NCBI GenBank assembly: GCA_030532905.1
Contig: JAUNKE010000001.1
Location: 8,601-72,600 of the forward strand
Origin: Peptostreptococcaceae bacterium
GTDB taxonomy: Bacteria; Bacillota; Clostridia; Peptostreptococcales; Filifactoraceae
Length of the DNA stretch: 64,000 nt
Reading direction: 5' to 3'
Part shown: piece after piece, positions 6,699 through 50,764 of the stretch
How the letters are laid out: every line of letters starts with the position of its first letter
How positions within the stretch are numbered: position 1 is the first letter of the stretch
The notes under the pieces: generated by a model
Database searches by the model: none
Told to the model about the DNA's origin: nothing
The model's input: the letters and a program-made list of their open reading frames with translations, nothing else
Made by a program: the position numbers and the translations under genes

Positions 6699-7598
6699 TT
6701 AATCCCGCATAATTCTCAAATAGAAATCCAATCTTGCGTTGACATAACCCGCAAACAAATTCTCCATCGCCGATATATCATCTTTTAGATGGTATTCATC
6801 AAATGCATCGTAATAGGCGATGCGATCCGTAAATTTAATATCGATCGGCGGATAGCCCGCTTTCATCAATTCCAAATTCACGAGCAGCCTTCCCGTCCTT
6901 CCGTTACCGTCAATAAAAGGATGTATCGCTTCGAATTCAATATGAAATCGAGCCAACTTCGTCACAATCGGCTCTTGACTTGCTGAAAATTTTTCCAAAA
7001 GCTGCTGCATTTTCGGCTCAATCAAATAAGGTTGAACCGGCTCATGCTTTGCGCCCATAATTCGAACCGGCACTCTGCGATAGATACCGCGGTCCTCTCT
7101 TTTATCCGCAAGAACAAGATAATGAATCTGCTTAATAACTCTCTCGCTCATCGGAATATTATCTTTTACAAGCTCATGGACAAAATCAAAAGCCTCCTTG
7201 TGAGCGATTGCTTCCAGATGGTCTTTTAACGGTTTACGGTCGATGGTCAAGCCGCGTAAAACCAAGTCCGTTTCTCTTAAAGTTAAAGTATTTCCTTCAA
7301 TCGCATTGGAATTATAGGTGAACTCGACTGCAAATTCCTCATTCAACCTTTGAACTTCTCCTGCGGTTAAAGGTCTTTTGTTATCCAGCTCCGTCTTCTT
7401 TCGCTCAATTTGAGACAAAATACTTTCTTTAGATTTATATCGTCTGTCAGCGGGTTTTACTGCATCAACAGGAATTTTCCAGCCTCGTCCTTCTTGATAT
7501 GCACCGGCGATTTTACCTTCGGCACAAAGAACTCTTATCCTTCTATCCGAAATCCCCCATTTTTCAGCAGCCTGCTTTACCGTCATGAACATTTTCAT
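6699..7598 (-). CDS. fic: Fic/DOC family protein with an N-terminal HTH (excisionase/MerR-like) domain
   Basis: It carries the canonical Fic motif HPFIDGNGRTGR, the inhibitory helix motif SNAIEGN, and an N-terminal TVKQAAEKWGISDRRIRVLCAEGKI HTH. Confidence 0.85.
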   Translation of the reverse strand: MKMFMTVKQAAEKWGISDRRIRVLCAEGKIAGAYQEGRGWKIPVDAVKPADRRYKSKESILSQIERKKTELDNKRPLTAGEVQRLNEEFAVEFTYNSNAIEGNTLTLRETDLVLRGLTIDRKPLKDHLEAIAHKEAFDFVHELVKDNIPMSERVIKQIHYLVLADKREDRGIYRRVPVRIMGAKHEPVQPYLIEPKMQQLLEKFSASQEPIVTKLARFHIEFEAIHPFIDGNGRTGRLLVNLELMKAGYPPIDIKFTDRIAYYDAFDEYHLKDDISAMENLFAGYVNARLDFYLRIMRD

Positions 7599-9278: not shown

Positions 9279-10340
9279 TTATCTGTTTTCCACAAATTCA
9301 TGGGCATCTTCCTGACCCATCAGCACACGATATGCTCCATGCGCCAGCGACTCCAATTCATTTTCGCCCGGCAAAACATGCACCGGTGCGATGAACTTCA
9401 CTTTTTTGGTAATATAGTCGGTAATATATTTGGAATAGGCAATTCCTCCGGTGATAACAACGGCATCCACTTCGCCGTCCAAGACGACTGCGAGTTCGCC
9501 GATGGATTTTGCAATCTGATACGCCATCGCATCATACACCAACTTCGCCTGCTGATCGCCCTGCTCAATCATCTTTTCAACATCGAGCGCCGAATTCGTT
9601 CCGAGCAGCGACACCAAGCCCGCTCCCCCACGCATTTTCTTCGTCAAAGTCGGCAAATCGAATTGCAAGGCATATTTCATAAAATCTTTGATTGGCAGAC
9701 GACCCGAGCGCTCCGGTGAAAACGGCCCTTCGTCATCCGAAACGATGTCGAGCATTCTGCCCTGTCGATGCGCCGAAAGCGACATCCCGCCCCCCAGATG
9801 AGCGACGATTTGATTCGTTTGATTGTACGGCTTGCCGAGTTTTTCAGCCGATTTGATTGCCGAAGCACGCATATTGAGCGCATGAGAAAGGCTCTTACGC
9901 TTAATTTCTTTGATTCCGGTGAGACGCGCGACATCGTCCAGCTCATCCACCGCCACCGAATCGTAAATATATGCCGGAACGCCGACCGAATCCGCAATAT
10001 CCTTCGCAATCAGTCCGCCCAGATTGGACGCATGCTCCAGTACGGGACGATTGAGCAGCACATCCGCCATCACATCGTTGACCACATAAGCCCCCGATTG
10101 AACCGGCGGCAAAATTCCGCCACGACCGACCACCGCACTCAAATCCTTAGTGGAATAGCCTGCCTTTTCCAACACCGAAATAATCGCATCCTTGCGCATT
10201 TCATACTGCGACGCGATGCTCGGGTATTTCGCCAATTCTTCGTTGGAATGCTCCAAGCTTTCCTTAAACAGTAAATCCTTGTCTTCATAAAGCGCAATCT
10301 TGGTCGAAGTTGACCCCGGATTGATTGCTAATATTTTCAT
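9279..10340 (-). CDS. buk: Butyrate kinase
   Basis: MKILAINPGSTSTKIALYED...HLGGGMS...ITGGIAYS is a full-length Buk match. An RBS (AAGGAG) precedes the start. Confidence 0.85.
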   Translation of the reverse strand: MKILAINPGSTSTKIALYEDKDLLFKESLEHSNEELAKYPSIASQYEMRKDAIISVLEKAGYSTKDLSAVVGRGGILPPVQSGAYVVNDVMADVLLNRPVLEHASNLGGLIAKDIADSVGVPAYIYDSVAVDELDDVARLTGIKEIKRKSLSHALNMRASAIKSAEKLGKPYNQTNQIVAHLGGGMSLSAHRQGRMLDIVSDDEGPFSPERSGRLPIKDFMKYALQFDLPTLTKKMRGGAGLVSLLGTNSALDVEKMIEQGDQQAKLVYDAMAYQIAKSIGELAVVLDGEVDAVVITGGIAYSKYITDYITKKVKFIAPVHVLPGENELESLAHGAYRVLMGQEDAHEFVENR

Positions 10341-10429
10341 ACACAGCTCCTTTATCATGAGATTTTTTTCTATTCAATCTACCTATAATTATAGTATGAA
10401 TTCGTTTTTTTGTCATTATGGATTTAGGC

Positions 10430-11824
10430 TTATGCAAAAATCTTATCACAGACTTGTTCAATAATCTTCGGCAATTGTGCGCTCTCCACATTGTAGAAAT
10501 ACAGCAACAGATTCGGCTTCTTCTGCGCATAGTCCGACTGCACATAGCTGCCGAAAGGCGTCGCCTTCATGCCATGGCGTACAAATTCGTCCGCAATCTC
10601 CTCTTCCGAATATTTGCAGCGAAGCTCAATTATCATAAAGAGTCCCGATGTATTGCTGATGATGCGCACTTTTCCCCGATACGATTCATTCAGAAAATCG
10701 GAGAGCATGCTCGCCTTTTCGCTGTATAATCTTCGAATCCGCCGAATATGCCGCTGATAATATCCGTCCTCCATAAATTTGCAGAGCGCGAGTTGGTCAA
10801 CCTTCGACACCCCCTGCGAATAAGAATTTTTGATTTCCTGATAAATCGCCAAAAGCTCCTTCGGCAAAACCAGATAGCTGATTCGTATCGACGGCAAAAG
10901 AGTCGATGAAAAAGAGCCCATATAAATCACGCGTCCGCTCTTATCCATCGCTTTGAGTGCGGGAATCGGACGACCGAAATATCGCAATTCCGAATCATAA
11001 TCATCCTCGATAATATAGCCCCTCGTGTCGCGCGCCCACGAAAGCAGTTGACTTCTTCGAGCCGCCGACATCACGATGCCCGTCGGAAATTGATGCGACG
11101 GACTCACATAGAGCAGGTCGAGCTTTTTGGCAAAAGCATCCGCAAGCAAAATCCCCTCCTCATCAATCGGCAAATTGTGAATCTTAAAATGCTGTGCGCC
11201 GAAAATATTACGGCTGAGCACATAGCCAGGGTCTTCAAAACCGATGCTCTTTCTTCCGGCGCGATTGAGAATGGCGGTCAAAATATTCATCAGCTGCTGC
11301 GTTCCCGCACCGACGACCACTTCATCACTGTTGCAGTGAACCCCGCGAGACTGAAACACATATTTCGCAATCTGCTCCCGCAATTCCATCTCTCCTTGAA
11401 AATCCGCATCCGCAAGCAAAAACTTGGATTGATACACGAGCACATGATTCAAACATTTCTTCCATTTTATAAAATCAAAACATTCCTCATCATAAATGGA
11501 AACCATACGCTCGAAATGAACCTTGCTCGCATCATGGGCACTGTCATACGAAAGGCTCATCACCTCTTCCACAAAATCGAGCTTGTTGACATAGTAACCC
11601 GACTTTTCCTTGTTCAAAATATAGCCTTCCATCGCCAATTGGTCATAGGCAAGACGAATCGTCGTGATGCTGATTCCCATTTTTTTCGACAGATTTCGAA
11701 TCGACGGCAGTTTCTCTCCCTCGCGAATGGAGCCGTTTTCAATCTCGGTTTTGATATATTTATACAGCTGTGAATACATCGGCTCCTTGGACGAGCGATC
11801 CAGCGTCGGCAAAATTTCTCTCAT
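10430..11824 (-). CDS. MocR/PdxR-family transcriptional regulator (GntR HTH plus aminotransferase-like domain)
   Basis: An N-terminal GntR HTH (LPSIRNLSKKMGISITTIRLAYDQL) is fused to a class-I aminotransferase fold. Total length is 464 aa. Confidence 0.8.
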   Translation of the reverse strand: MREILPTLDRSSKEPMYSQLYKYIKTEIENGSIREGEKLPSIRNLSKKMGISITTIRLAYDQLAMEGYILNKEKSGYYVNKLDFVEEVMSLSYDSAHDASKVHFERMVSIYDEECFDFIKWKKCLNHVLVYQSKFLLADADFQGEMELREQIAKYVFQSRGVHCNSDEVVVGAGTQQLMNILTAILNRAGRKSIGFEDPGYVLSRNIFGAQHFKIHNLPIDEEGILLADAFAKKLDLLYVSPSHQFPTGIVMSAARRSQLLSWARDTRGYIIEDDYDSELRYFGRPIPALKAMDKSGRVIYMGSFSSTLLPSIRISYLVLPKELLAIYQEIKNSYSQGVSKVDQLALCKFMEDGYYQRHIRRIRRLYSEKASMLSDFLNESYRGKVRIISNTSGLFMIIELRCKYSEEEIADEFVRHGMKATPFGSYVQSDYAQKKPNLLLYFYNVESAQLPKIIEQVCDKIFA

Positions 11825-12223
11825 ACAAACTCCTCTTAACCATCCGGCATTTTATCCGATTATAATAATAAGCGACTCGGATAATGCATTGTATCATTTT
11901 ACATTAGTATATCGAATTTTATGCTTTTCATCAAGAAAGGACTTTGTTCCATTTTGAAAACGGATAACGATTCAATCGGGCTTTTCCTACAAAATTTTTA
12001 CTTGCATTACCAAAAAATTCGCCTTCCGTTTTATAAAATAAGGTTACCGCTTTTCATACCATCAGAAGATTGCAGTCCGTTTGGACAACTCAAACCGTCG
12101 GTTTTGAAAAGGTCTGAAGAATTCTTGTGAAATATTTTATTTTCAGCAAAAATTAGTGACAAACCGGTTACATTGGTATATACTATAAATTGGAATATTA
12201 TATGTGTCCTTGACACGGCATGG

Positions 12224-13367
12224 GGGAAATGTTATGAAGAAACATTTTAGCATTGCATTGTCACTAGCGCTTTTTATCAGTTCCGGCGCAATGGCAAAAG
12301 CAGACAACTTCTCCGATGCACAAAACCACTGGGCAAAAGACAGTATTGAAAAAGTTGTTACGCTGGGCTATATGAAAGGGCTCGGCAACAATCGATTCGG
12401 TACCCAGAAAAATGTCTCCCGAGAAGAGCTTGCCGCAATCGTTGTGCGACTCGCAGGCGATCCGTCCGCTTCGACTTCACTGAAATTCAGTGACACCGTC
12501 GGAAGATGGAGCGAGCAGGTTATCTTAAAGAGTGTGGCATCCGACTTTATGGTGCCGGTCAATTCCAACAATTTTGCCCCGGCGCAAAATGCAACAAGAG
12601 AAGAAGTCGCAAGAGCGATTCAACGCAGCTTGCGATACAAAGGCGTACAACTACCGACGACGCCTCAGAATTTCAGCGACATCGCCAATTCGCCATATCA
12701 AAGCGAAATTCAAAATGTCGCATCACTCGGTATTATGAGTGGCTATCCCGATGGAACTTTCGCACCGCGCAAAAGTATTACCCGCGCCGAGCTGGCATCC
12801 ATCATCGTGCGTGCAAATGAAGTGATAAACGGAGGAATCCTTCCTCAAACCCAAAGTGCATCTCAAAAACCGGAAAAGAAAACACAGGTCACAGCAAAAA
12901 AAGATCAAAAGAAAAACAGTGCCAAACCAAAGCAATCATCTGATATTATTAATGTTACGGTTCAAACGAGCCAAGGCACGACAACAGTTTCCGGAAAATA
13001 CAACAGGGAATATGCACAAAAAGTGCTTGAACTTGTAAATGCGGAAAGAACAAAAGCGGGAATCTCCCCATTGAAATGGGCGGATGACTTGGACTCCGGA
13101 ACGGATATACGAGCTGCGGAACTTACTGTATTTTGGGATCATACCAGACCGAATGGGAAACCATTTCACTCAGTAGGAACTGACTGTTGGTCTGAAAACA
13201 TCGCTGCCGGACAACAAAGTCCGCAAGAAGTGGTCAACTCTTGGATGAACTCACCGGGTCATCGCAAGAATATCATGAACAAGGAATACACCAAAATGAG
13301 CGTGTCGCTCTTTATTCCGAATCAAACGACCGAATACAAAACTTATTGGGTACAACATTTTGCATAG
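12224..13367 (+). CDS. Cell-surface protein with three SLH domains and a C-terminal CAP/SCP/PR-1-like domain
   Basis: A signal peptide is followed by three SLH repeats (FSDAQNHWAKDSIEKVV...; FSDTVGRWSEQVILKSV...; FSDIANSPYQSEIQNVASLGIMSGYPDGTFAP), a K/Q-rich linker, and a CAP domain (HRKNIMNKEYTKMSVS). Confidence 0.75.
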
Positions 13368-15070: not shown

Positions 15071-16072
15071 TTACAGGATGAATCCGTATTTGACGGGATC
15101 ATTTTCGTCAATGACAAAGTGACTGAAGCCCGTAATATAAGCGGAGCCCGCTATTTTAGGAATAATCGCATCATAGTCGCCTACCTTGTCCGTGCCGACG
15201 ATTTCTCCATGAAACAGCGTTCCCAAAATGCTTTCATAGACGAATTTTTCGCCCTGCTTAATCTCTCCTTTGGCAAAGAGAGTCGCCAATTTTGCGGAAG
15301 TTCCCGTACCGCATGGCGAGCGATCCACCTGACCCTGCCCGAAAATCACGACATTCTTGTAGGTCGCCTCCGGATGAGTCGGCTCATCATAAATTTCCAC
15401 CAAATCCACCGTCTTGATATGTTTCAATATCGGATGCTGAATTTCAATTTCCCGATTGATGACAGAGCGCAATTTCATCGCCGCCTCCGTCAGATTTTTA
15501 CTGTTCTCCGGCTTAATTTCAAGCCCGAGCTCTTTGGCATGAACGATTGCAAAAAAGCTTCCGCCGAATGAAATGTCAAAAGTGATTTCCTTGCCGTCGA
15601 GCACCACCTTCTGATTTTGTTTATACAAAAAAGCAGGCACATTGACAAATGCGACGCTCTTGACCTTTCCGTTTTCAACTTTCGCTTCCGCACGCACGAT
15701 GCCCGCCGGTGCTTCGAGCACGACAGTCGTAATCGGCTCCACCATCGGCACCATTCCCGTTTCAATTGCCGCCGTCACCGCACCGATGGTTCCGTGACCG
15801 CACATATTGAGATAGCCCCCGCCATCCATAAATATAATACCCAAATCCGCCTCCGGACTCACCGGCGCCAGCAAAATCGAGCCGAACATATCCCGATGTC
15901 CTCTCGGCTCCAGCATCACCGCCGTCCTCAGATAGTCCAAATTCTGCTCAAGATATTCCTTTTTCTCCGGCATCGTTGCGCCTTTGATATTCGGAATCCC
16001 GCCCACGATAATTCGAGTCGGCTCGCCTGCAGTATGAGAATCAATGGCATGTAATCCGCGGGAAAATATCAT
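15071..16072 (-). CDS. prdF: Proline racemase
   Basis: IDSHTAGEPTRII, the two catalytic Cys (NMCGHGT and SPCGTGTSA), and its position at the end of the prd operon support the call. Confidence 0.85.
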   Translation of the reverse strand: MIFSRGLHAIDSHTAGEPTRIIVGGIPNIKGATMPEKKEYLEQNLDYLRTAVMLEPRGHRDMFGSILLAPVSPEADLGIIFMDGGGYLNMCGHGTIGAVTAAIETGMVPMVEPITTVVLEAPAGIVRAEAKVENGKVKSVAFVNVPAFLYKQNQKVVLDGKEITFDISFGGSFFAIVHAKELGLEIKPENSKNLTEAAMKLRSVINREIEIQHPILKHIKTVDLVEIYDEPTHPEATYKNVVIFGQGQVDRSPCGTGTSAKLATLFAKGEIKQGEKFVYESILGTLFHGEIVGTDKVGDYDAIIPKIAGSAYITGFSHFVIDENDPVKYGFIL

Positions 16073-16539
16073 CTTTCTTTCCTCCTCATTTTCAGTTTCA
16101 AAAAAGCGACCGCCTTTTTCGCGTCCAATCTGTCCGCTGTATTTTCGCCCACCACTTCGGTTTCGATACCCTCCGCCGACTTGTTGATGTCAACAATGGT
16201 GTCCATATATTTGTTCGTAACGACAAATTTTGCCTGTGTTCCGTTAAAAGTCATGCCGACTACGGCGATATCACGCTTGCCGATTTCTTCAAAAGTATTG
16301 GCATAATCGACATGAGAATTTCCCCAACCGTCACAGGACAAAATACAACCGTCCACACGCATCGCCTCAAGCATCTGCGCGGTTCTTTGTCCCACTCTTT
16401 CCTTTTCCGAATTGTCCTGCGGTGTTCCCACCACAATGACACCGACGAGATCCACATCCGTATCCTCACCCAACACTTCTAAAAGCGGGTCGCGAAAATG
16501 ATGCAGACTCGTCTCCTTCGTCGATGGCCCTACGCCCAT
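16069..16539 (-). CDS. prdE: D-proline reductase-associated protein PrdE (paralog of the PrdA C-terminal region)
   Basis: The 156-aa ORF is homologous to the PrdA C-terminal region (GVIVVGTPQDNSEK...TFNGTQAKFVVTNKYMD). Operon context supports the call. Confidence 0.7.
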   Translation of the reverse strand: MGVGPSTKETSLHHFRDPLLEVLGEDTDVDLVGVIVVGTPQDNSEKERVGQRTAQMLEAMRVDGCILSCDGWGNSHVDYANTFEEIGKRDIAVVGMTFNGTQAKFVVTNKYMDTIVDINKSAEGIETEVVGENTADRLDAKKAVAFLKLKMRRKER

Positions 16540-16547
16540 AAGTCCTC

Positions 16548-17297
16548 CTAATCCATTGCCCGAAGCGCCCCGTCACGAAATTCGTTCGGCGACAAAACGA
16601 CGGGCATATTGCCAAGCTCGATAATCGAAACGCCGCCGGCAAAACCCGAAGGCTCTTTCGGGAAAAGCAGATTGTCATACATCGCTCCCTGTCCGGCGAC
16701 CTGCTTGACGATGGCGACTCGCTTGACGCCCGAACGAGCTTTGTCATAAAACTCATGCACCTCATTCGCATTTTTGGACTCTTGTTTTTTCAGCGTCATT
16801 CGTATATTTTGTATAATTTCGTCGCAGATTTGAAAAGCGGCGGTCGGCAATCGTCTGTCATAGGGCTCGCCACCTTTGAGCAACACATCGATATGAATGA
16901 TATAATCCTCTTCGCGCGGCGTCCCCGCCTTTCCGAATTTCATCTGCCGGCTCAAAATTCCTTCCGACGAGCCGAACTCATGCATCTGTCGCCCGTCTTC
17001 GTCACAACCGGTCAGCATCACATAGACACCCGTCATCGTGAAGGTGATTCCTTCGCCCAATTTGCCGAGCACCTTGGTTGAAATCGGAATGATGTCCATA
17101 ATCGTATTGATTTCCCGCTCATGATCATGCGGTTTGATAATATCGATATGAACTTTTCGAATCAAAGGATGAGACAGCGCATCGACAACCTTTTTATCCA
17201 GTAGCAACAAGCCGTTTTGAAATTCAAATCCGTCGCCGAAAATCACTTCATGCACATGAAATGAACGGATGACCAATCTCCGTAATATTTCTTCCAT
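16548..17297 (-). CDS. prdD: D-proline reductase-associated protein PrdD (paralog of the PrdA N/middle region)
   Basis: The 249-aa ORF is similar to the PrdA central region (ITFTMTGVYVMLTGCDEDGRQMHEFGSSEG). Confidence 0.7.
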   Translation of the reverse strand: MEEILRRLVIRSFHVHEVIFGDGFEFQNGLLLLDKKVVDALSHPLIRKVHIDIIKPHDHEREINTIMDIIPISTKVLGKLGEGITFTMTGVYVMLTGCDEDGRQMHEFGSSEGILSRQMKFGKAGTPREEDYIIHIDVLLKGGEPYDRRLPTAAFQICDEIIQNIRMTLKKQESKNANEVHEFYDKARSGVKRVAIVKQVAGQGAMYDNLLFPKEPSGFAGGVSIIELGNMPVVLSPNEFRDGALRAMD

Positions 17298-17330
17298 AAT
17301 TCACCGTTTCGGAGGGAAGATCCCTCCACC

Positions 17331-18056
17331 TTAAACTTTTGCATTGTATTCGAACGGCAGCGGAATGATTTGTCCCGCACTCGTCATCTCCATCATCGCT
17401 TCCAGCGAAGCTTTGACGATTTCGGTTTGCATTTCGATGTCATTCGGCGCACCCGCATTCGCGCCCATCGGCACAAGAGGCGCAACCGCCCGAGGCGTTC
17501 CGTTTTGTCGAACGACCGGCGGCAAAGCTGCGATGATAACCGTCGGAATACCGGCAGCTTCAATTGCTCTCTGCACAATCACGGCAGAGCGGTGGCAAGT
17601 ACCTCAGCCGGCGGTCAGCAGCACATAGTCCACGCCTTCTTCCTTGAGCTGCTTGGCAATCTCCGGTCCGGTTTCGTTCGTAAACTTCGACTGGTCGCCG
17701 CCGCCGCCCATAAATCCGAAATGAATCGGCGCAACCGCTTTGATAAATCCTTCTTTTGCAAGTTCCTGCAAGCGCTCAATCGGGAACATGCAGTTGATGT
17801 CCTTGTTGACATCTCCGTTGTCATATCCTCCGTGAGATACCATCAGCTCCTCGCCTTTGACATCGCCCGGAATCGTGCGGAATGTAAAATCTCCCGCCAA
17901 ATTAAAACGCTCGTCCTTTTTCAAATGCACACCTGCCGCAGTTGCCAATGCAACCACCGATTCATTCAGCGGTTTGGAAACCGGCGTCCACACCGGCGGC
18001 GGCGTAACAGGCACAAATATTTCCGATTGTAGTCCTTTTACGACTGTAAGGCTCAT
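17331..18056 (-). CDS. prdB: D-proline reductase subunit PrdB. It is a selenoprotein, with the in-frame TGA at 17604-17606 (minus strand) read as Sec.
   Basis: The two ORF fragments are in frame across TGA: ...DYVLLTAG-U-GTCHRSAVIVQRAIEAAGIPTV... (the PrdB/GrdB-type UxxC motif). A CTCTGC/GCAGAG hairpin lies 14 nt downstream of the UGA. Confidence 0.85.
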
Positions 18057-18325
18057 TTTGAATCCTCCATTTTCTTCTGCTTTTTATACTCCAAATTCTG
18101 AGCATATTTTTCATTCACTTGCGGCCCGAGCACCTCCGGATAGCTCAACAAAAATCCTACTTCCAATCCCTCTTTGAGTTCATAGTCCGTAATCACCATC
18201 CGAACCGGCACACGCCATTGCCCCATTCTTCCTTTGAGATCGATCGCCACAAGACCGTCCTTGACTTCGACAATTACACCTTCCACATAATTTTCCGTGG
18301 AAGCATATTTCAATTTATCCATCAT
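18053..18325 (-). CDS. Small prd-operon protein between prdA and prdB (hypothetical)
   Basis: The 90-aa ORF overlaps both neighbours by 4 nt. A small ORF at this position is conserved in prd operons. Confidence 0.6.
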   Translation of the reverse strand: MMDKLKYASTENYVEGVIVEVKDGLVAIDLKGRMGQWRVPVRMVITDYELKEGLEVGFLLSYPEVLGPQVNEKYAQNLEYKKQKKMEDSK

Positions 18326-20205
18326 TCCACTTCGTAAATTTCCATTCTTTTTTTACTCTTCGGCAGCACCTGCTCGTTATCAACCAACTCAATTTTCTCG
18401 CCGAGCGCTTTCTCAATCATCTCGATATTGTTCAGCTTCACACTCGGATTCCATTTGCGCTCCGCCTCTTTGACTTCTTCACCCGCCATCGCCGTTTTGA
18501 GCATCGCCATCGCACGAATCGCGTCCTCTTTACACAGCGTATTGTTGGATAAAATTTCATTTTCGATTCCCTGAGAAGATTTGTTGTTGTCAATCATATG
18601 CTTCATATATTTATTGCCGACCACCAATGCTCCTTGAACTGCGGAATAAGTGACGCCGACAACTTCCACACCGCGCATTCCGATTTGCTCATGATGCGAT
18701 GCAAAGTCGATATGATTGTTTCCGAAGCCTTCCGTCGTAATAATTGCACCATCGACATCCATCGCCTCGACCGTCATACCCAATCGATTCGACACATAGA
18801 ATTTCTCCGAGTTGATTTGCGGTGAGCCGACAAAGATAACACCCGCCAAATCCACTTCTTCATCACGCATCGCTTCAATGACCAAAGGCTCTCTGAAATA
18901 ATGACGCGAATTTTCTTTGGACGCAGATCCGATACAGGTCAGCGCATGAATTCCGCCATCGAGCACTTCAAGCGGCGAAAGCACCACCGGCAAGTTCCCC
19001 AAATCGACATTCGGCTTCGCTCCGAGCGTGCCGACCGGCTCCACCGGAAGAATCAGATTGTCATGCATTGCACCCTGTCCCATAATCTCTTTGACGATGA
19101 CGATTTTCTTTTTGCCCGCTCGTCTTTTTTGTACGAATTCTTCTTCGCGAGTGACCAAAGAATCGTCGGCCTTTTTTAGCGCCTTTCGAATCTCTTCCGT
19201 AATAAAATCCGACACCTTGTGTGCGGCAAGCGGTCCCGGTCTCTCCATATTCGTATGCGCCTTGATGACCACCTCGGTCTTGATAAAAATCTCGCCCTTG
19301 TCCGGCGCTCCCGGTCTTCCCCACATAATATTTTTGTCAAGCTCGCCTTCGGATGAGCCGAACTCTCCGATTTGAACTCCGTTTTCATCCGTTCCCGTCA
19401 CCATCATGATGACACCGTCGAGCACTCTCGTAATTCCGCTGCCGAGCTCGCCTTCCTCTTTGGTTGCAATCGGCTGAACATCCATAATCGTTTCGGAATA
19501 ATTGCCGTACTTCTCCGGTGTGATGATATCCACCTTCATCGAAACAACCAATTCCTGCGTTTCGACCGCATCCTTTTCAATCCCTTCCCGAATGTATAAA
19601 GTCTTGCCCTCGATTTTGGTTTCCGAGCCGAATTCCACTTTATCAATTTGGAAATGGCGACGCTTGAGTGAGCGAATCACTCTCTCCGACGGAGTCTTTT
19701 GATTTTGCGCAGACGCTTGCTCGGATGCCGCTCCCGCTTGCGCTGCCGCATGAGAACTTCCCGAGAACATATTCTCCGCCATGCCGGCACGCGCAACGCT
19801 GAGCGGAATTTCAAGATTGATGTCGCGACCTTCACCGATATGAATTCGAATTATTCCCGCATTTTCCGCAATCGCTGCGACCGGCGCGATTGGCGCAACC
19901 GATGCAACCGGCTCCATCACCGGAGCTTTACTCTCCTTTTGCTCTGCCGGCGATGCGATGCCCGAAAGCATTTCTTTTGTCAAAGGCGTCAACGCATCCA
20001 CCGTCTGCGTCAACTTTGCGCCGAGCACTTCTTCAATCGTCAGCGTGTCCTCCCCGATTTGCAACAAGCCGGACTCCACAAGGTCCGGAAAAATTGCGGG
20101 GTCTTCCAAATTGGATACTTCAATAATATTGCCCGCTTCGAATCGACAGCACAATACCGCCGGGTCTTTTGCATGAGCCTTGGCGGTTTCAATCGTAATT
20201 GACAT
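18322..20205 (-). CDS. prdA: D-proline reductase proprotein PrdA (pyruvoyl-dependent)
   Basis: The 627-aa ORF contains the processing-site context ...GGIHALTCIGSASK... typical of PrdA. Confidence 0.85.
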   Translation of the reverse strand: MSITIETAKAHAKDPAVLCCRFEAGNIIEVSNLEDPAIFPDLVESGLLQIGEDTLTIEEVLGAKLTQTVDALTPLTKEMLSGIASPAEQKESKAPVMEPVASVAPIAPVAAIAENAGIIRIHIGEGRDINLEIPLSVARAGMAENMFSGSSHAAAQAGAASEQASAQNQKTPSERVIRSLKRRHFQIDKVEFGSETKIEGKTLYIREGIEKDAVETQELVVSMKVDIITPEKYGNYSETIMDVQPIATKEEGELGSGITRVLDGVIMMVTGTDENGVQIGEFGSSEGELDKNIMWGRPGAPDKGEIFIKTEVVIKAHTNMERPGPLAAHKVSDFITEEIRKALKKADDSLVTREEEFVQKRRAGKKKIVIVKEIMGQGAMHDNLILPVEPVGTLGAKPNVDLGNLPVVLSPLEVLDGGIHALTCIGSASKENSRHYFREPLVIEAMRDEEVDLAGVIFVGSPQINSEKFYVSNRLGMTVEAMDVDGAIITTEGFGNNHIDFASHHEQIGMRGVEVVGVTYSAVQGALVVGNKYMKHMIDNNKSSQGIENEILSNNTLCKEDAIRAMAMLKTAMAGEEVKEAERKWNPSVKLNNIEMIEKALGEKIELVDNEQVLPKSKKRMEIYEVE

Positions 20206-33704: not shown

Positions 33705-34034
33705 ATGCCGAAACACTCTTCTTTCGCCACCAATTTTTCGCTCGATCCATCATCGCCCGATTGTATGCCACTTCCTTTTCAAAACTCCTACTTTCTCTAT
33801 TCTACACTTTGTGCAGGCGGATTGCAAGACGGCGCCTCAACATCACCGTTCCATCCTTATAAAGAAAGAAACACATATCCGAACGCTCGCTCAAAATCGT
33901 ATTGAAATCCGAACCCCCAATACAAGTCTATCAAGCACAAACATTGAACAAAATTTCAAAAAATGCTATAATTCTATTGAGAAGAGAACGCGGATAAAAA
34001 TCCATATAGAAGAAAAAATTCGGAAGGTAAGATT

Positions 34035-34943: not shown

Positions 34944-36101
34944 ATGAAGAAAAGAATCAGTACAACGAATGGAAAAACCCAAAAAGCGCTTGCGCTGTTG
35001 TCGGCAATCATGCTGTTGATGCTTGCCGCCTGCGCGCCGAATCAGCAGAGCAGCGCCGATACCAAAATCACATCCGAAGTCGATGCGATGAGTATCGAGA
35101 TATTCAACGCCGTTTTTGAAAGTCATGAAAAAGAAAACAATCTCGTGTTGTCTCCGCTCTCGATTCAGCGACTGCTCGACTTGATGGCATTGGCAACCGA
35201 CGAGCGAGCGGATTTGAAGACGCTGTCCGTCTATGACGAAAATCATTTGGAAAATTTGAATCTCGCGAACAGCAAGATGGAAAGTCTGATTTTGATTAAC
35301 AAAGCCATAAGCGATACCAAGCCGGAGCTTTCTTTCAAAAATATTAAAATTACGGAATTTCCAAAACAGGCAACCAAAGAAAAGATCAATCTTCAAAAAA
35401 GAGTGCTCGACGAAGTGCTCAACGAGGAAAGCATCAGCGCCGAATCCGTCTTGGTGCTGCTCGATGCGATTCAATATTATGCAGAATGGACGGAGCCGTT
35501 CGACACCGCTTTGACCGCCGATGCGGATTTTACAACCTTTGAAAAGAAAAAAATATCCGTACCGACCATGTCCAAAAAATTCGACAGCCTTAACTATTGG
35601 ACGGATGATGAAAAAGAAATCGCTCAGCTTGACGGCAAAAACGACGCCAAAGTCTATTTCATCAAACCGAAAAAAGACATTGAAAAATTAGACCTTGCCA
35701 AAGCCGTCAGCGAATTCAAAGAGAACGCCAACAATGGCGAAGTGCTGTTCAAGATGCCGAAAATCGAGTACAAACTGACGAGCGACCTCAAAGAAATGTT
35801 TGAAAAAATCGGTCTCGGCAAGATGCTTGTCAACTACGAGCTTGAAAAACTGCTGCCGGGCGTTCCGCTTAAAATCACCTCGGCAACGCAGACCGCGACA
35901 CTCAAAATCGACGAAAAAGGTGCGCGCGCCAAAGCCGTCACCGAAATTCAAAACGAAGCCGCTTCCGCACTGGACGAGCCGACCGAAATCAAGATGGACA
36001 GCCCATACTACATCGTCATGACCGATGTGGAAAAAAATACGGGAGAAAGCATCATCACTTTCGTTTGCTACATCGCCGACCCGAGTCAAAAAGAAAAATA
36101 G
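34944..36101 (+). CDS. Serpin-family protein (lipoprotein form)
   Basis: It has a lipobox (LAACAP), an N-terminal serpin motif (NLVLSPLSIQRLLDLMALA), a hinge/RCL-like segment (KGARAKAVTEIQNEAASA), and a C-terminal MDSPYYIVMTD motif similar to the serpin s5B region. Confidence 0.6.
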   Translation: MKKRISTTNGKTQKALALLSAIMLLMLAACAPNQQSSADTKITSEVDAMSIEIFNAVFESHEKENNLVLSPLSIQRLLDLMALATDERADLKTLSVYDENHLENLNLANSKMESLILINKAISDTKPELSFKNIKITEFPKQATKEKINLQKRVLDEVLNEESISAESVLVLLDAIQYYAEWTEPFDTALTADADFTTFEKKKISVPTMSKKFDSLNYWTDDEKEIAQLDGKNDAKVYFIKPKKDIEKLDLAKAVSEFKENANNGEVLFKMPKIEYKLTSDLKEMFEKIGLGKMLVNYELEKLLPGVPLKITSATQTATLKIDEKGARAKAVTEIQNEAASALDEPTEIKMDSPYYIVMTDVEKNTGESIITFVCYIADPSQKEK

Positions 36102-36132
36102 CGATAGAAATTCAACGAAATGACCAAAAAAA

Positions 36133-36288
36133 TTTCCGTTCCGATGGGACGGCAAAGCGGTGGGGTTCTAGACCTAACCGGATTTTCAAGCAAAGCGATG
36201 AAAATCTTTGGTAGGTCACATGCATGGGTTGACGAGATATACAATGACCGCAGGGAGATTGTATGTCCGTAACCTACTGCCACCGTTC
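36133..36288 (+). ncRNA. Structured-RNA-like repeat element, copy 1 (unknown family), in the 3' UTR of the serpin gene
   Basis: The 156-nt segment is about 90% identical to 42166-42327. It contains CCGTTCC-GAT-GGGACGG, GATTTTCA/TGAAAATC and ATACAAT/ATTGTAT hairpins and a GGTAGGT/ACCTAC closing pair. Confidence 0.5.
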
Positions 36289-36304
36289 TTTATAATTCAA
36301 AAAG

Positions 36305-36346
36305 CCGACCCCCTCATTAGAACAAAACTGAGGAGGTCGGTTTTTT
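36305..36346. terminator. Bidirectional terminator between the serpin gene and selO
   Basis: The sequence ccgaccccctca...tgaggaggtcgg TTTTTT forms a stem with a T-run. Confidence 0.7.
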
Positions 36347-37859
36347 AAGTTCCGCAGAAAGTGCGATAGCCCGCCATCGAATACTTCGGCAATTCCTGAT
36401 ATTCCCTATCCTTTTCGTCATAGCGATAAGGTGCTTGTAAAACGCTCAACAATTCCCGAAACGGATTCAACTCTCCTTCGAGCGCCTTTTGCAAAACCTC
36501 TTCCACCCGAAAATTGCGCGGTATCACAAAAGGATTGGCTTCCTGCATCCGCCGAGCGATTTCCGATTGTAACATCACGGACGCCGTTTCTTTGTCTTCC
36601 ATCTTCTGATTTTCCAAACGCGCCGACCATTTTTGATGCCATCGCTCAAAATTCTCATCGGCAAAGAGTCGCTGCGTGCCTTCCAAATAAGCACCGTCAC
36701 GCTCCATCCTCTCCAGCGTCAAACGCACAAAAGTATTTGTAAAATCCGCTTCATTTTCGAGCATCAGCGAAAGCAATTCGTCAATCAAAGTCGCATCCTC
36801 CGCTTTTTTGTCGAAAATCCCAAGCTTTTGACAGATTCCGTCAAACCAAAATTCTTCATAGAGCGGCTTAAACTTCATAATTTCCTCATTGGCAATTAAG
36901 AGCGCCTCTTCCTCATTTGCCGACAACAACGGCAGCAAAGTTTCCGCAAATCTCGCCAAATTCCACTGCGCAATCGGCGGCTGATTCTCATAGCGATATC
37001 TGCCATGCCTGTCAATCGAGCTGAACACCGTCTTCGGATTGTACGCATCCATAAAAGCGCAAGGTCCGTAATCAATCGTCTCGCCCGAAATCACCATATT
37101 GTCGGTATTCATCACCCCATGAATGAATCCGACCGACTGCCATTTTGCAATCAGCGACGCCTGATTCTCGATGACCGCTCTTAAAAACAGACGATATTTT
37201 TCATCTTCCTTTGCTTCCGCCAAATGCGAAAAATGTCGCAAAATCGTATAATCGGCAAGCGCACGAAGATTCGAAGGCTCCAGCGATGCCGCAAACTGAA
37301 AAGTTCCGACCCGAATATGACTGCTCGCCACCCGCGTCAGCACCGCCCCCGGCAAAATGCCCTCCCGACGAATGTCCTCGCCCGTAGTAACCACCGCAAG
37401 ACTTCGCGTGCTCGGAATCCCGAAAGCCGCCATCGCCTCGCTGATTAAATACTCCCGAAGCATCGGTGCAAGCGAAGCCCGACCGTCGCCACCGCGCGAA
37501 TACACCGTTCTGCCGCTGCCCTTGAGCTGCACATCCACCCGCTCGCCCGAGGACAACACTTTTTCGCCGAGCAAAATCGCCCGACCGTCGCCGAGCATAT
37601 TCAAATAACCGTATTGATGACCCGCATAAGCTTGCGCAATCGGCGATGTGCCCGCCAAAAACTCATTCCCCGAAAAAATTCCCGCCTTCTCCACATCCGA
37701 TAAACCGATTGAATCCGGAAATCCCAAATCTTTCGCCAGCTTTTCATTCCACAAAACCAAATTCGGCTCCGGAAAATTCGATTTCTTGGCATAGGTGAAA
37801 AATTCCTTCGGCAAATTTTCATAGCTGTTTTCCAAATCCCAAACGATTTGTTTTTCCAT
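36345..37859 (-). CDS. selO: Protein adenylyltransferase SelO/YdiU (UPF0061) homolog. It is Cys-type, with a normal TAA stop.
   Basis: The 504-aa ORF is a full-length YdiU family match (HQYGYLNMLGDGRAILLGE; DYGPCAFMD). The C-terminus is ...TFCGT. Confidence 0.75.
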   Translation of the reverse strand: MEKQIVWDLENSYENLPKEFFTYAKKSNFPEPNLVLWNEKLAKDLGFPDSIGLSDVEKAGIFSGNEFLAGTSPIAQAYAGHQYGYLNMLGDGRAILLGEKVLSSGERVDVQLKGSGRTVYSRGGDGRASLAPMLREYLISEAMAAFGIPSTRSLAVVTTGEDIRREGILPGAVLTRVASSHIRVGTFQFAASLEPSNLRALADYTILRHFSHLAEAKEDEKYRLFLRAVIENQASLIAKWQSVGFIHGVMNTDNMVISGETIDYGPCAFMDAYNPKTVFSSIDRHGRYRYENQPPIAQWNLARFAETLLPLLSANEEEALLIANEEIMKFKPLYEEFWFDGICQKLGIFDKKAEDATLIDELLSLMLENEADFTNTFVRLTLERMERDGAYLEGTQRLFADENFERWHQKWSARLENQKMEDKETASVMLQSEIARRMQEANPFVIPRNFRVEEVLQKALEGELNPFRELLSVLQAPYRYDEKDREYQELPKYSMAGYRTFCGT

Positions 37860-39612: not shown

Positions 39613-39796
39613 TATTTCTAAATTATAAACAAAAATCGGATTTTTGTCCATATCTTTTTTCAATTTCAAAAAATTTCGTATAGCGTTACAAAAAAGTTAT
39701 AAACAACAACAAAAATACATTGACATTTTACAGATATTTTTATAGAATAGCAATCGTGTGCTTCAACACGCATAAAAAATAGAGTAGGAAAGAAAT

Positions 39797-50035: not shown

Positions 50036-50764
50036 TTAAAAACTTTTTCTGCTCATCAGTCGGTTTGCTACAAAGACAAGCAACACAATGTAGAGAATAC
50101 ACAAGATTACAAAGAACGAATAATTTCCTTGCGTAATTTGTTGTGGAGCATTGGAACTCATTCCATAGCTCATCAACGCATACGGCCAAAGATGACCGAA
50201 TCCTTTTACGAGCGCAATGATTCCCGAGATTCCTCCAATAAATGAAATCCCTATCGGCAACGCAAAACTCTTGATATAGGCGGATAACAGCAACTGAATA
50301 CTCGCCGTTACCATGCCGCCCAGCGTACCAAAAGCTCCCCACATAAACATCAAATGAATTGGCGGCGGTTCAGTCAAACCAGCGATTTTACCCGATATGA
50401 CAAATAATACGGCAATCCATAGCTGAGTGAGTAAAATCAATTTAGTAACGCTAGCAAGTTTCGCCACAAAAATCAGTTTACGCGAAACCGGCAAACTCAA
50501 CATCTTATTCCAATTGTGATTATTATGTTCCAGTCGCATCAAATAAGAGCAAAACACCCCCAACATAACCGGCAATATAAAATAACTGACAAACAGCGTA
50601 TGTTGCGTCCATAGACTATACCATTCTTTTTTTAGAATTCCAATATTTCCCAAATAGTTCGCCGTACCGAGAAAGGCTGAGAAAATCGGCAATACAATGC
50701 AAACAATCCACATCGGTGAGCGTCTGAGCTTCATCTGCTCCGCTTGAATCAATCGTACTAACAT
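50036..50764 (-). CDS. Lantibiotic-immunity-type ABC-2 permease (MutG/EpiG-like)
   Basis: The 242-aa protein has 6 TM segments and is the third gene of an F-E-G ABC module. Confidence 0.65.
   Translation of the reverse strand: MLVRLIQAEQMKLRRSPMWIVCIVLPIFSAFLGTANYLGNIGILKKEWYSLWTQHTLFVSYFILPVMLGVFCSYLMRLEHNNHNWNKMLSLPVSRKLIFVAKLASVTKLILLTQLWIAVLFVISGKIAGLTEPPPIHLMFMWGAFGTLGGMVTASIQLLLSAYIKSFALPIGISFIGGISGIIALVKGFGHLWPYALMSYGMSSNAPQQITQGNYSFFVILCILYIVLLVFVANRLMSRKSF

Follow-up and report, generated by a model that had tools for sequence, protein, structure and literature searches.

This study concerns a structured intergenic element of ~165 nt that occurs twice in a 64-kb stretch of DNA from a Peptostreptococcaceae bacterium (GenBank assembly GCA_030532905.1, contig JAUNKE010000001.1, positions 8,601 to 72,600 of the forward strand; hereafter the window), once downstream of a serpin gene (copy A) and once upstream of a helicase gene (copy B). 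The copies belong to a repeat family that is built of modules, occurs nested within itself, is present or absent at the same sites in close relatives, does not code for protein, and folds with compensatory changes in its stems. We consider it probable that this is a small and lineage-restricted family of palindromic repeats, interspersed and non-autonomous, which are selfish and insertion-polymorphic in the manner of BOX, bcr1 and REP or miniature inverted-repeat transposable elements (MITEs). This reading is preferred because the copies show several forms, truncation, nesting, shuffled stem arms, decay, presence or absence between relatives and a narrow range of hosts, and because they lack transcription signals. 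A role as a conserved, dedicated regulator in the serpin 3' untranslated region (UTR) is not supported.

A repeat search of the window recovered copies A and B as direct repeats at 36134-36295 and 42166-42327 (162 nt, 90% identity), and nhmmer and a covariance model agreed, setting the limits at 36130-36297 and 42162-42329. On the + strand the element comprises a 5' hairpin, P0 (CCGUUCC-GAU-GGAACGG as RNA), followed by a three-way junction of the closing stem P1 and the hairpins P2 and P3. Long-form copy A spans 36131-36295 (+ strand, ~165 nt), with P0 at 36136-36152, P1 arms at 36156-36163 and 36280-36287, and a body of ~114 nt (36167-36280) holding P2 (36171-36217) and P3 (36223-36279); its tail is degenerate and reads CTTTATAA where CCCTACAA is expected. 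Long-form copy B (42164-42327, + strand) ends in CCCTACAA and has P0 at 42168-42184, P1 arms at 42186-42194 and 42313-42321, and a body at 42199-42312 with P2 at 42203-42249 and P3 at 42254-42312. The P1 arms are AGCGGUGG/CCACCGUU in copy A and GGAACGAAG/CUUCGUUCC in copy B, different between the copies and complementary within each, and one P0 pair is U-G in copy A and U-A in the other copies. A first-pass annotation of the sequence had described the second copy at ~90% identity, this wobble in the first hairpin, the divergent and internally paired closing stems and a partial head at 42096-42139, all of which were borne out.

Further copies were found in a second lineage, the Filifactoraceae metagenome-assembled genome (MAG) D-73_MAG_2 and its near-twin GCA_041848385.1, at loci L086 (equivalent to L190; the two loci are 99.8% identical), L090 and L191. 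Over 1.25 kb of comparable helicase gene, the window and the D-73_MAG_2 lineage share only 80.7% nucleotide identity, and the two MAGs belong to a different species from that of the window; copies of the element are 86-92% identical between the two species. L086 and L090 were retrieved by scanning a genome collection (596 Gb) with the exact 15-mer GGTTCTAGACCTAAC, a word that was too short: among the at least 109 loci listed for it, 107 were chance matches and only these two were real. When metagenomes were scanned with an 18-mer of the P2 loop, all 71 matches likewise proved to be due to chance, and two exact-word scans of viral contigs and a blastn search against plasmids and phages returned nothing real. 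A profile of the translated element, run against 1.84 billion representative proteins, recovered five open reading frames (ORFs), P0121 and P0140-P0143. P0121 and P0143 come from Peptostreptococcaceae MAGs, and P0140-P0142 are NCBI or NCBI plus Logan entries, of which P0142 was traced to D-73_MAG_2; the copies behind P0121, P0140, P0141 and P0143 are known from their ORFs alone. All detected copies lie in Peptostreptococcaceae or Filifactoraceae MAGs or in NCBI or Logan contigs; the hosts are a few related anaerobes of gut or oral habitats. The SelO protein of the window is itself 100% identical to P0001, a protein of a Peptostreptococcaceae MAG at NCBI. Exact-protein look-ups of the serpin and SelO led to short Logan contigs broken off within the element, and these were first read as a sign of many copies; the breaks add nothing on copy number because the two window copies alone suffice to cause them. 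We put a weak similarity at 33843-33852 (GGAACGGTGA) down to chance.

The + strand of copy A folds at -65.2 kcal/mol (z -5.3) and that of copy B at -70.4 kcal/mol (z -8.4), with 0/200 shuffles as stable. In an alignment of the four full copies (A2: window copies A and B with L086 and L090), 96.4% of cells pair. Six double-sided pair changes occur among these four sequences, in P0, P1 and P3, against 2.6 +/- 1.2 in shuffled alignments (5/500 reached the observed number) and 0-3 in slid controls, and L191 adds a further P0 variant, CUGUCCC/GGGACAG. The L090 copy no longer forms the fold (-43.7 kcal/mol). The first-pass annotation had taken the pairing of the closing stems as a sign of selection on RNA structure. 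The compensation it saw in P1 is real and extends to P0 and P3; it is insufficient by itself to demonstrate an RNA function, because REP, bcr1 and BOX-type repeats typically show such stem compensation too (PMC3733652, PMC3184786).

The family also includes incomplete and compound forms. Besides the two long copies, the window holds one truncated head and one body-less unit, the mini. The truncated head (42096-42139, + strand) comprises P0, the P1 5' arm and the junction and continues into P2, where it stops within the 5' arm; its P1 arm is of the copy A type (AAAGCGGTGA). The mini lies on the minus strand at 41981-42028 and has its own P0 hairpin (CGACAAAC-TTT-GTTTGTCG, then CGGAACGGTGGGGT|CACCGTTCCCTACAA; written as RNA, P0' CGACAAAC-UUU-GUUUGUCG, then CGGAACGGUGGGGU|CACCGUUCCCUACAA). 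What follows this P0 is the P1 hairpin, here with a loop of 4 nt, and an unpaired tag; the ~114-nt body is absent. Its core (41981-42008, minus strand) is identical at 28/28 positions to a mini at L191 in the second species; we regard the mini as a genuine form rather than a one-off deletion because this identical core recurs. At L191 an 80-nt mini unit interrupts the P2 apical loop of a long copy (10068-10345), and a global alignment of that copy to copy B shows a single 80-nt gap, exactly at the P2 loop.

The units extend beyond the P1 hairpin and its tail. Copy B is followed by a 3' extension (42328-42359, + strand; CGA GATAATCAAAG N6 TATTCAAAACAA), and the ~35 nt 3' of CTACAA (GATAATCAAAG-N6-TATTCAAAAYAA) are conserved between copy B and the L191 copy (10311-10341). 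As this conservation spans two species and unrelated loci, the extension is part of the element, and the unit therefore reaches further 3' than the limits first assigned to it. The extensions of the minis, which in the window occupies 41935-41980 on the minus strand (...ATATTCAAAATACAAATTGTTGACAAC), are related to that of the long form, and their translation matches the tails of P0121, P0140 and P0143.

Closing stems of two types are mixed among the copies. Type I is GGAACGGTGG/CCACCGTTCC; the type II 5' arm AAAGCGGTGG is carried by copy A and the partial head, and the matching type II 3' arm CCACCGCTTT is found at L090 behind a type I 5' arm. These mixed arms, with the truncated, body-less and nested copies, uphold the suggestion of recombination or mobility between copies that was first made from the partial head. 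In the window, copy B shares a cluster of ~416 bp (41912-42327) with the truncated head and the inverted, tailed mini, and this cluster is bracketed by a duplication of ~80-95 bp: X1 (41833-41911, + strand) is a diverged duplicate of X2, the sequence 3' of copy B (~42328-42413), and the corresponding sequence is single in the relative L186 (~5097-5012; see below). The outward-facing tails of the cluster form a 41-nt inverted repeat, I2 (41952-41992 / 42316-42356), L191 has a similar cluster with a degenerate extra head, and an inverted extension-like sequence also lies upstream of the L086 copy (688-716). Given these inverted sequences, there may be a larger unit bounded by inverted repeats. 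The ends of the long form itself (TTCCGTTCC... and ...CCCTACAA) are not inverted repeats of each other, whereas a MITE would have terminal ones of about 15-30 bp.

The distribution of the element was compared with that in L186, a Logan contig whose SelO is 89% identical to that of the window and which is syntenic over the helicase, ProRS, SelO and serpin genes. The serpin-SelO spacer of L186 measures 128 nt and retains the base of the terminator stem; the element is absent from it. Upstream of the orthologous helicase there is no P0-P1-body unit, and neither nhmmer nor the covariance model found a copy anywhere in the 18.6 kb of L186. The pattern is that of interspersed repeats: multiple non-coding copies, with presence or absence differing between close relatives. 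Two other loci were set aside as comparators, L187 (SelO 92%) because it ends before the intergenic region, and L189, considered as an empty site, because it is a paralogous rather than an orthologous locus. L186 also has a 372-aa gene (11186-12304) that is missing at the corresponding window position, 33781-33935.

Copy A lies between two convergent genes, encoding the serpin (34944-36101; Pfam Serpin) and SelO. It begins 32 nt past the serpin stop and stops 9 nt short of a hairpin at 36299-36346, which lies outside the repeat and folds on both strands (-23.8 kcal/mol on +, -26.8 kcal/mol on -). Because it folds on both strands between an A-run and a T-run, we take this hairpin to be a bidirectional intrinsic terminator of serpin (+) and SelO (-), in agreement with the first-pass placement of copy A between the serpin stop at 36101 and such a terminator; owing to its 12-nt loop it had escaped a simple terminator scan. 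The spacer that holds copy B, 875 nt long, separates a transglutaminase/GA-module gene (39797-41650) from a gene for a 1612-aa DUF4011 helicase-nuclease (42526-47364). Among all copies, which are without exception intergenic, orientation relative to neighbouring genes varies: one full copy in four, that at L086, runs antisense to the genes on both sides, and the L090 copy follows a divergent gene and precedes a terminator.

No promoter travels with the unit, because homology among the copies starts exactly at P0; consensus promoter scans found none immediately upstream of the copies, and the P0-P1-body unit has no terminator of its own. Copy A is probably transcribed passively, as it sits between the serpin stop and the serpin terminator, and it would then probably give the serpin 3' UTR a structure of -65 kcal/mol. 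Such a structure could alter the stability or decay of the serpin mRNA 3' end, an effect that would be a side effect of the landing site and not a conserved function. A promoter-like site at 41788-41816, conserved with L186, lies upstream of copy B, so that copy B would form part of a long helicase mRNA leader. A functional link between copy B and the PDC-S37/Hhe-like helicase was rejected, since the L186 ortholog has no P0-P1-body unit upstream.

The surroundings of copy B have further features of note. The helicase-nuclease (42526-47364, +) has DUF4011, AAA_11/12, REase_MTES_1575 and DUF3320 domains and gives a full-length match to the PADLOC candidate defence gene PDC-S37 (1143.7 bits), as well as a match to Hhe and a partial one to MkoA. 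The transglutaminase-core/GA-module/MucBP gene (39797-41650) and its flanks (39660-41783 in all) are missing in L186, which has ~164 nt instead; the ProRS-helicase spacer is a hot spot of gain and loss. The motif AAAAAGCTAGACAAAT occurs at 41868-41911, 42370-42413 and 42495-42514, twice followed by TTGCAACGATTTTTTGYATTTAG, and at ~4930-5060 of L186. It lies upstream of the helicase in both species, resembles the part GTTGACAACT of the mini 3' extension, and could be an operator or promoter motif or an old remnant of the repeat.

If the family is one of small interspersed palindromic repeats, its basic unit would be the mini, composed of P0, a 9-10-bp GC-rich P1 hairpin (GGAACGGTGG...CCACCGTTCC), an unpaired CTACAA tail and the ~35-nt 3' extension. 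The long form would carry the ~114-nt two-hairpin body (P2, P3) within the P1 loop. Copies would be placed into intergenic DNA, often beside terminators or within the loops of other hairpins, presumably through movement in trans by some enzyme, and would become truncated, recombined and degraded with time. Any transcript reading through a copy would passively gain a very stable structure.

BOX elements occur in forms without their middle module. The element studied here resembles pneumococcal BOX (Streptococcus pneumoniae) in being a small, non-coding, intergenic repeat of Firmicutes confined to a few close species, and in its modular build, with boxA, boxB(n) and boxC in BOX and a head, body and tail here (PMC3049150). 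In both, the ends pair into extensive secondary structure, spurious ORFs are possible and effects on co-transcribed genes are expected; BOX, RUP and SPRITE are viewed as parasitic elements influencing genes transcribed together with them (PMC3049150). Unlike BOX, the present element keeps its body within the loop that a short GC-rich stem closes, and has an additional 5' hairpin and a 3' extension; this comparison is one of descriptions, not of sequences. It is also similar to bcr1 of the Bacillus cereus group, another Firmicutes repeat of ~155-165 bp, which shows compensatory changes, variable stability and a distribution not conserved among close relatives (PMC3184786), and which has been counted among bacterial MITEs (PMC3733652). 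In both families a structure that is double-stranded in the RNA is kept by compensation, and its stability is lost in some copies. The two differ in that bcr1 has flanking 5-bp direct repeats, whereas neither these nor terminal inverted repeats are demonstrable here, and in that the present element consists of a 5' hairpin and a three-way junction. Spurious ORFs, G-T pairs and compensatory stems are documented in BOX, bcr1 and REP-type families (PMC3049150, PMC3184786, PMC3733652).

A narrower version of this explanation is a REP- or REPIN-like element moved on single-stranded DNA hairpins by a HUH tyrosine transposase, either a RAYT or a relative from IS200/IS605; we hold it to be rather unlikely in this specific form. 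GTAG REPs are palindromes of 20-40 bp with a stem of 5-13 bp, a loop of 2-20 nt and an unpaired terminal GTAG, and they form subfamilies with alternative complementary stem residues and G-T pairs (PMC3733652). Such an enzyme is an attractive candidate mover because the minus-strand P1 hairpin reads GTAG-GGAACGGTGG...CCACCGTTCC, the GTAG-REP format, and the mini (41983-42008, + strand) has an unpaired GTAG beside a 9-bp GC-rich stem and a 4-nt loop. Copy B, both minis, L086, L191 and the P0121 copy carry the tag, alternative complementary stems and G-T pairs occur here as well, and the placement of the copies is that reported for GTAG REPs (PMC3733652): downstream of genes, between convergent genes, clustered or in inverted pairs. 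The lack of an evident target-site duplication would also fit. However, no Y1/RAYT gene was found among ~52 window ORFs, six ORFs of L086 and L090, and the Pfam hits of L186, L188, L189 and L191. The long form is about five times the length of a REP, carrying a structured ~114-nt insert in a loop of ~125 nt in place of 2-20 nt, and the tag is degenerate in copy A and L090. Copy number appears low, GTAG REPs were not reported from Firmicutes in PMC3733652, and a GTAG beside a hairpin in a few related copies can be plain inheritance.

Other observations weigh against interspersed repeats more generally. No transposase, reverse transcriptase or recombinase was found in the 64-kb window or the fetched loci. 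For the long form, neither a target-site duplication nor terminal inverted repeats could be defined: no short direct repeat is common to the flanks of the four long copies, and the ~80-95-bp duplication around the copy B cluster is not a typical target-site duplication. At the copy B site, L186 retains sequence weakly similar to the 3' extension, and the difference there may stem from a deletion in L186 rather than from an insertion in the window. Distinct full-length copies at the DNA level number only four. The minus strand folds more weakly than the + strand in 3/4 of these copies, and the + strand fold includes 2-7 G-U pairs. Variable columns number 3/60 in P2 and the junctions against 40/102 elsewhere in the four-copy alignment, where 15 of these 60 columns are biased by the search word that retrieved L086 and L090. 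The uneven variation and the better + strand fold would also fit a functional RNA core.

We therefore weighed a functional, structured, multi-copy non-coding RNA family, acting as a small RNA (sRNA) or a cis-acting UTR module, with P2 and the junctions as its core and P0, P1 and P3 under structural selection. In its favor are the very stable + strand fold with its strand-specific G-U pairs, compensatory changes above both the shuffled and the slid controls, the almost invariant junctions and P2, the intergenic position of every copy, and the 86-92% identity of the element between species against ~81% for 1.25 kb of the helicase gene. We nevertheless judge it unlikely, as the element is missing from both orthologous sites of the closest relative, L186, the unit has neither promoter nor terminator, one copy is antisense to its neighbours, and truncated, body-less, nested and decayed copies occur. 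The mini shows that the body can be wholly missing with the remainder still conserved, there is no Rfam match, and of the four full sequences (n=4) two were retrieved through an exact 15-mer within the conserved part. The proposal in the first-pass annotation of a serpin-linked RNA element or 3'-UTR-derived sRNA is not supported on the same grounds: L186 lacks the P0-P1-body unit at both sites, the unit is promoterless, L086 is antisense and L090 has lost the fold.

Searches with known RNA families gave no assignment. Rfam 15 covariance models applied to the whole window at gathering score detected only a cobalamin riboswitch elsewhere, at E<=10 they found nothing inside the element over 36050-36400 and 41900-42420, and ARAGORN had no match for the element; a T-loop or tRNA-like reading was dropped on the latter result. 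A hammerhead-type three-way junction was discarded since the core motifs and an Rfam match are absent, and a retron non-coding RNA (msr-msd) since the window has no reverse transcriptase. The core sites of integron attC sites, R''/R', are RYYYAAC...GTTRRRY. GGAACGGTGG/CCACCGTTCC do not fit this consensus, the window has no integrase, and the relative keeps the serpin without the element, so attC was dropped as well. An IS200/IS605-derived element (PATE) or a TnpB/IscB guide-RNA scaffold was dropped because P0 is unmatched at the 3' end, where such elements have similar subterminal hairpins at both ends; in addition, the 5' flanks have no common motif of the kind of their conserved left-end target tetra- or pentanucleotide, TnpA and TnpB were not found, and HEARO and other Rfam scaffolds gave no match.

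IS1397 and ISKpn1 insert into REP loops, and IS110-family elements insert into REPs. The present family is similar to these REP-targeting insertion sequences in that units lie inside hairpin loops, the body in P1 and the mini in P2. Unlike them, where the inserting element is autonomous and encodes a transposase, here insert and target are both short non-coding repeats. In a previously undescribed kind of mobile unit that seeks hairpin loops, the mini (P0, P1 and tail) and the 114-nt body would each enter precisely at the apical loops of hairpins already in place, with the body in P1, a mini in P2 and copies by terminators. The almost invariant P2/junction core would in that case have a function as RNA or as single-stranded DNA, such as recognition or catalysis in the unit's own propagation, rather than be a passenger; we find this proposal quite improbable.

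Contrary to the first-pass statement that the copies share no ORF, the same + strand frame, SVPMERRNGGVLDLTRFSSKAMKIFGRSHAWVDEIYNDRREIVCP, is open in copy A (50-aa ORF, 36120-36272) and copy B (78-aa ORF, 42152-42388), as well as in L086, P0121 and P0140-P0142, and public annotation calls ORFs through further copies (P0121, P0140-P0143). That a small protein is encoded in this frame is nonetheless hardly credible: start codons are not conserved, the L090 frame has one stop and a frameshifting 2-nt deletion, two minus-strand frames are open alongside it (three at once), variable sites at codon positions 1/2/3 number 4/7/6 with no excess at the third, P1 changes are all non-synonymous, and the only matches in the 1.84 billion representative proteins are ORFs through other repeat copies. 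On these patterns we judge the frame to be non-coding, as the annotation had supposed.

The interspersed-repeat reading accounts for two long structured intergenic stretches and for several spurious hypothetical proteins in public MAGs (P0121, P0140-P0143), and the repeats are probably also behind contig breaks when these organisms are assembled from short reads. The case cautions that compensatory stem changes between two copies do not prove a functional RNA. The family adds a modular, nested palindromic repeat to the Peptostreptococcaceae and Filifactoraceae, from which, to our knowledge, no such repeats have been described. Copies may tune the stability of the mRNAs that host them, those with the serpin 3' UTR and the candidate defence helicase leader being the cases at hand. 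Should insertion into hairpin loops prove true, the family would offer a compact system for the study of target choice by non-autonomous palindromic repeats.

The copies of the second species have neighbours of their own. At L191 (335-9820), the nested cluster adjoins genes for a type I restriction-modification system (HsdM, two HsdS, HsdR), a RhuM-like protein and KAP NTPases, and on its other side lies a gene for a 2882-aa SLH/LRR surface protein. Beside the L086 copy, at 978-2918, is a gene for a ~580-650-aa protein in which Pfam recognizes no domain. Its family has multiple paralogs, often arranged in tandem (L188-L190; P0122-P0139), and the search returned 18 matches only, the named ones all from Peptostreptococcaceae MAGs and the rest NCBI or Logan entries.

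Elsewhere in the window, the cobalamin riboswitch (RF00174, 75.3 bits) lies at 49617-49777 on the + strand between the minus-strand genes for BKACE (48644-49531) and an ABC-2 permease (50036-50764). With no + strand ORF of at least 90 aa for ~2.6 kb downstream, it may control a non-coding or antisense transcript rather than a downstream gene. An HTH and Fic/DOC protein (6699-7598, minus strand) matches PADLOC PDC-S04 and SoFic. At 15071-20205 (minus strand), a proline racemase gene adjoins genes of the Pfam Gly_reductase and GRDB families, including adjacent Gly_reductase-family ORFs in different frames (16069-16539 and 16548-17297), and this gene content is consistent with a Stickland-fermenting Peptostreptococcaceae organism.

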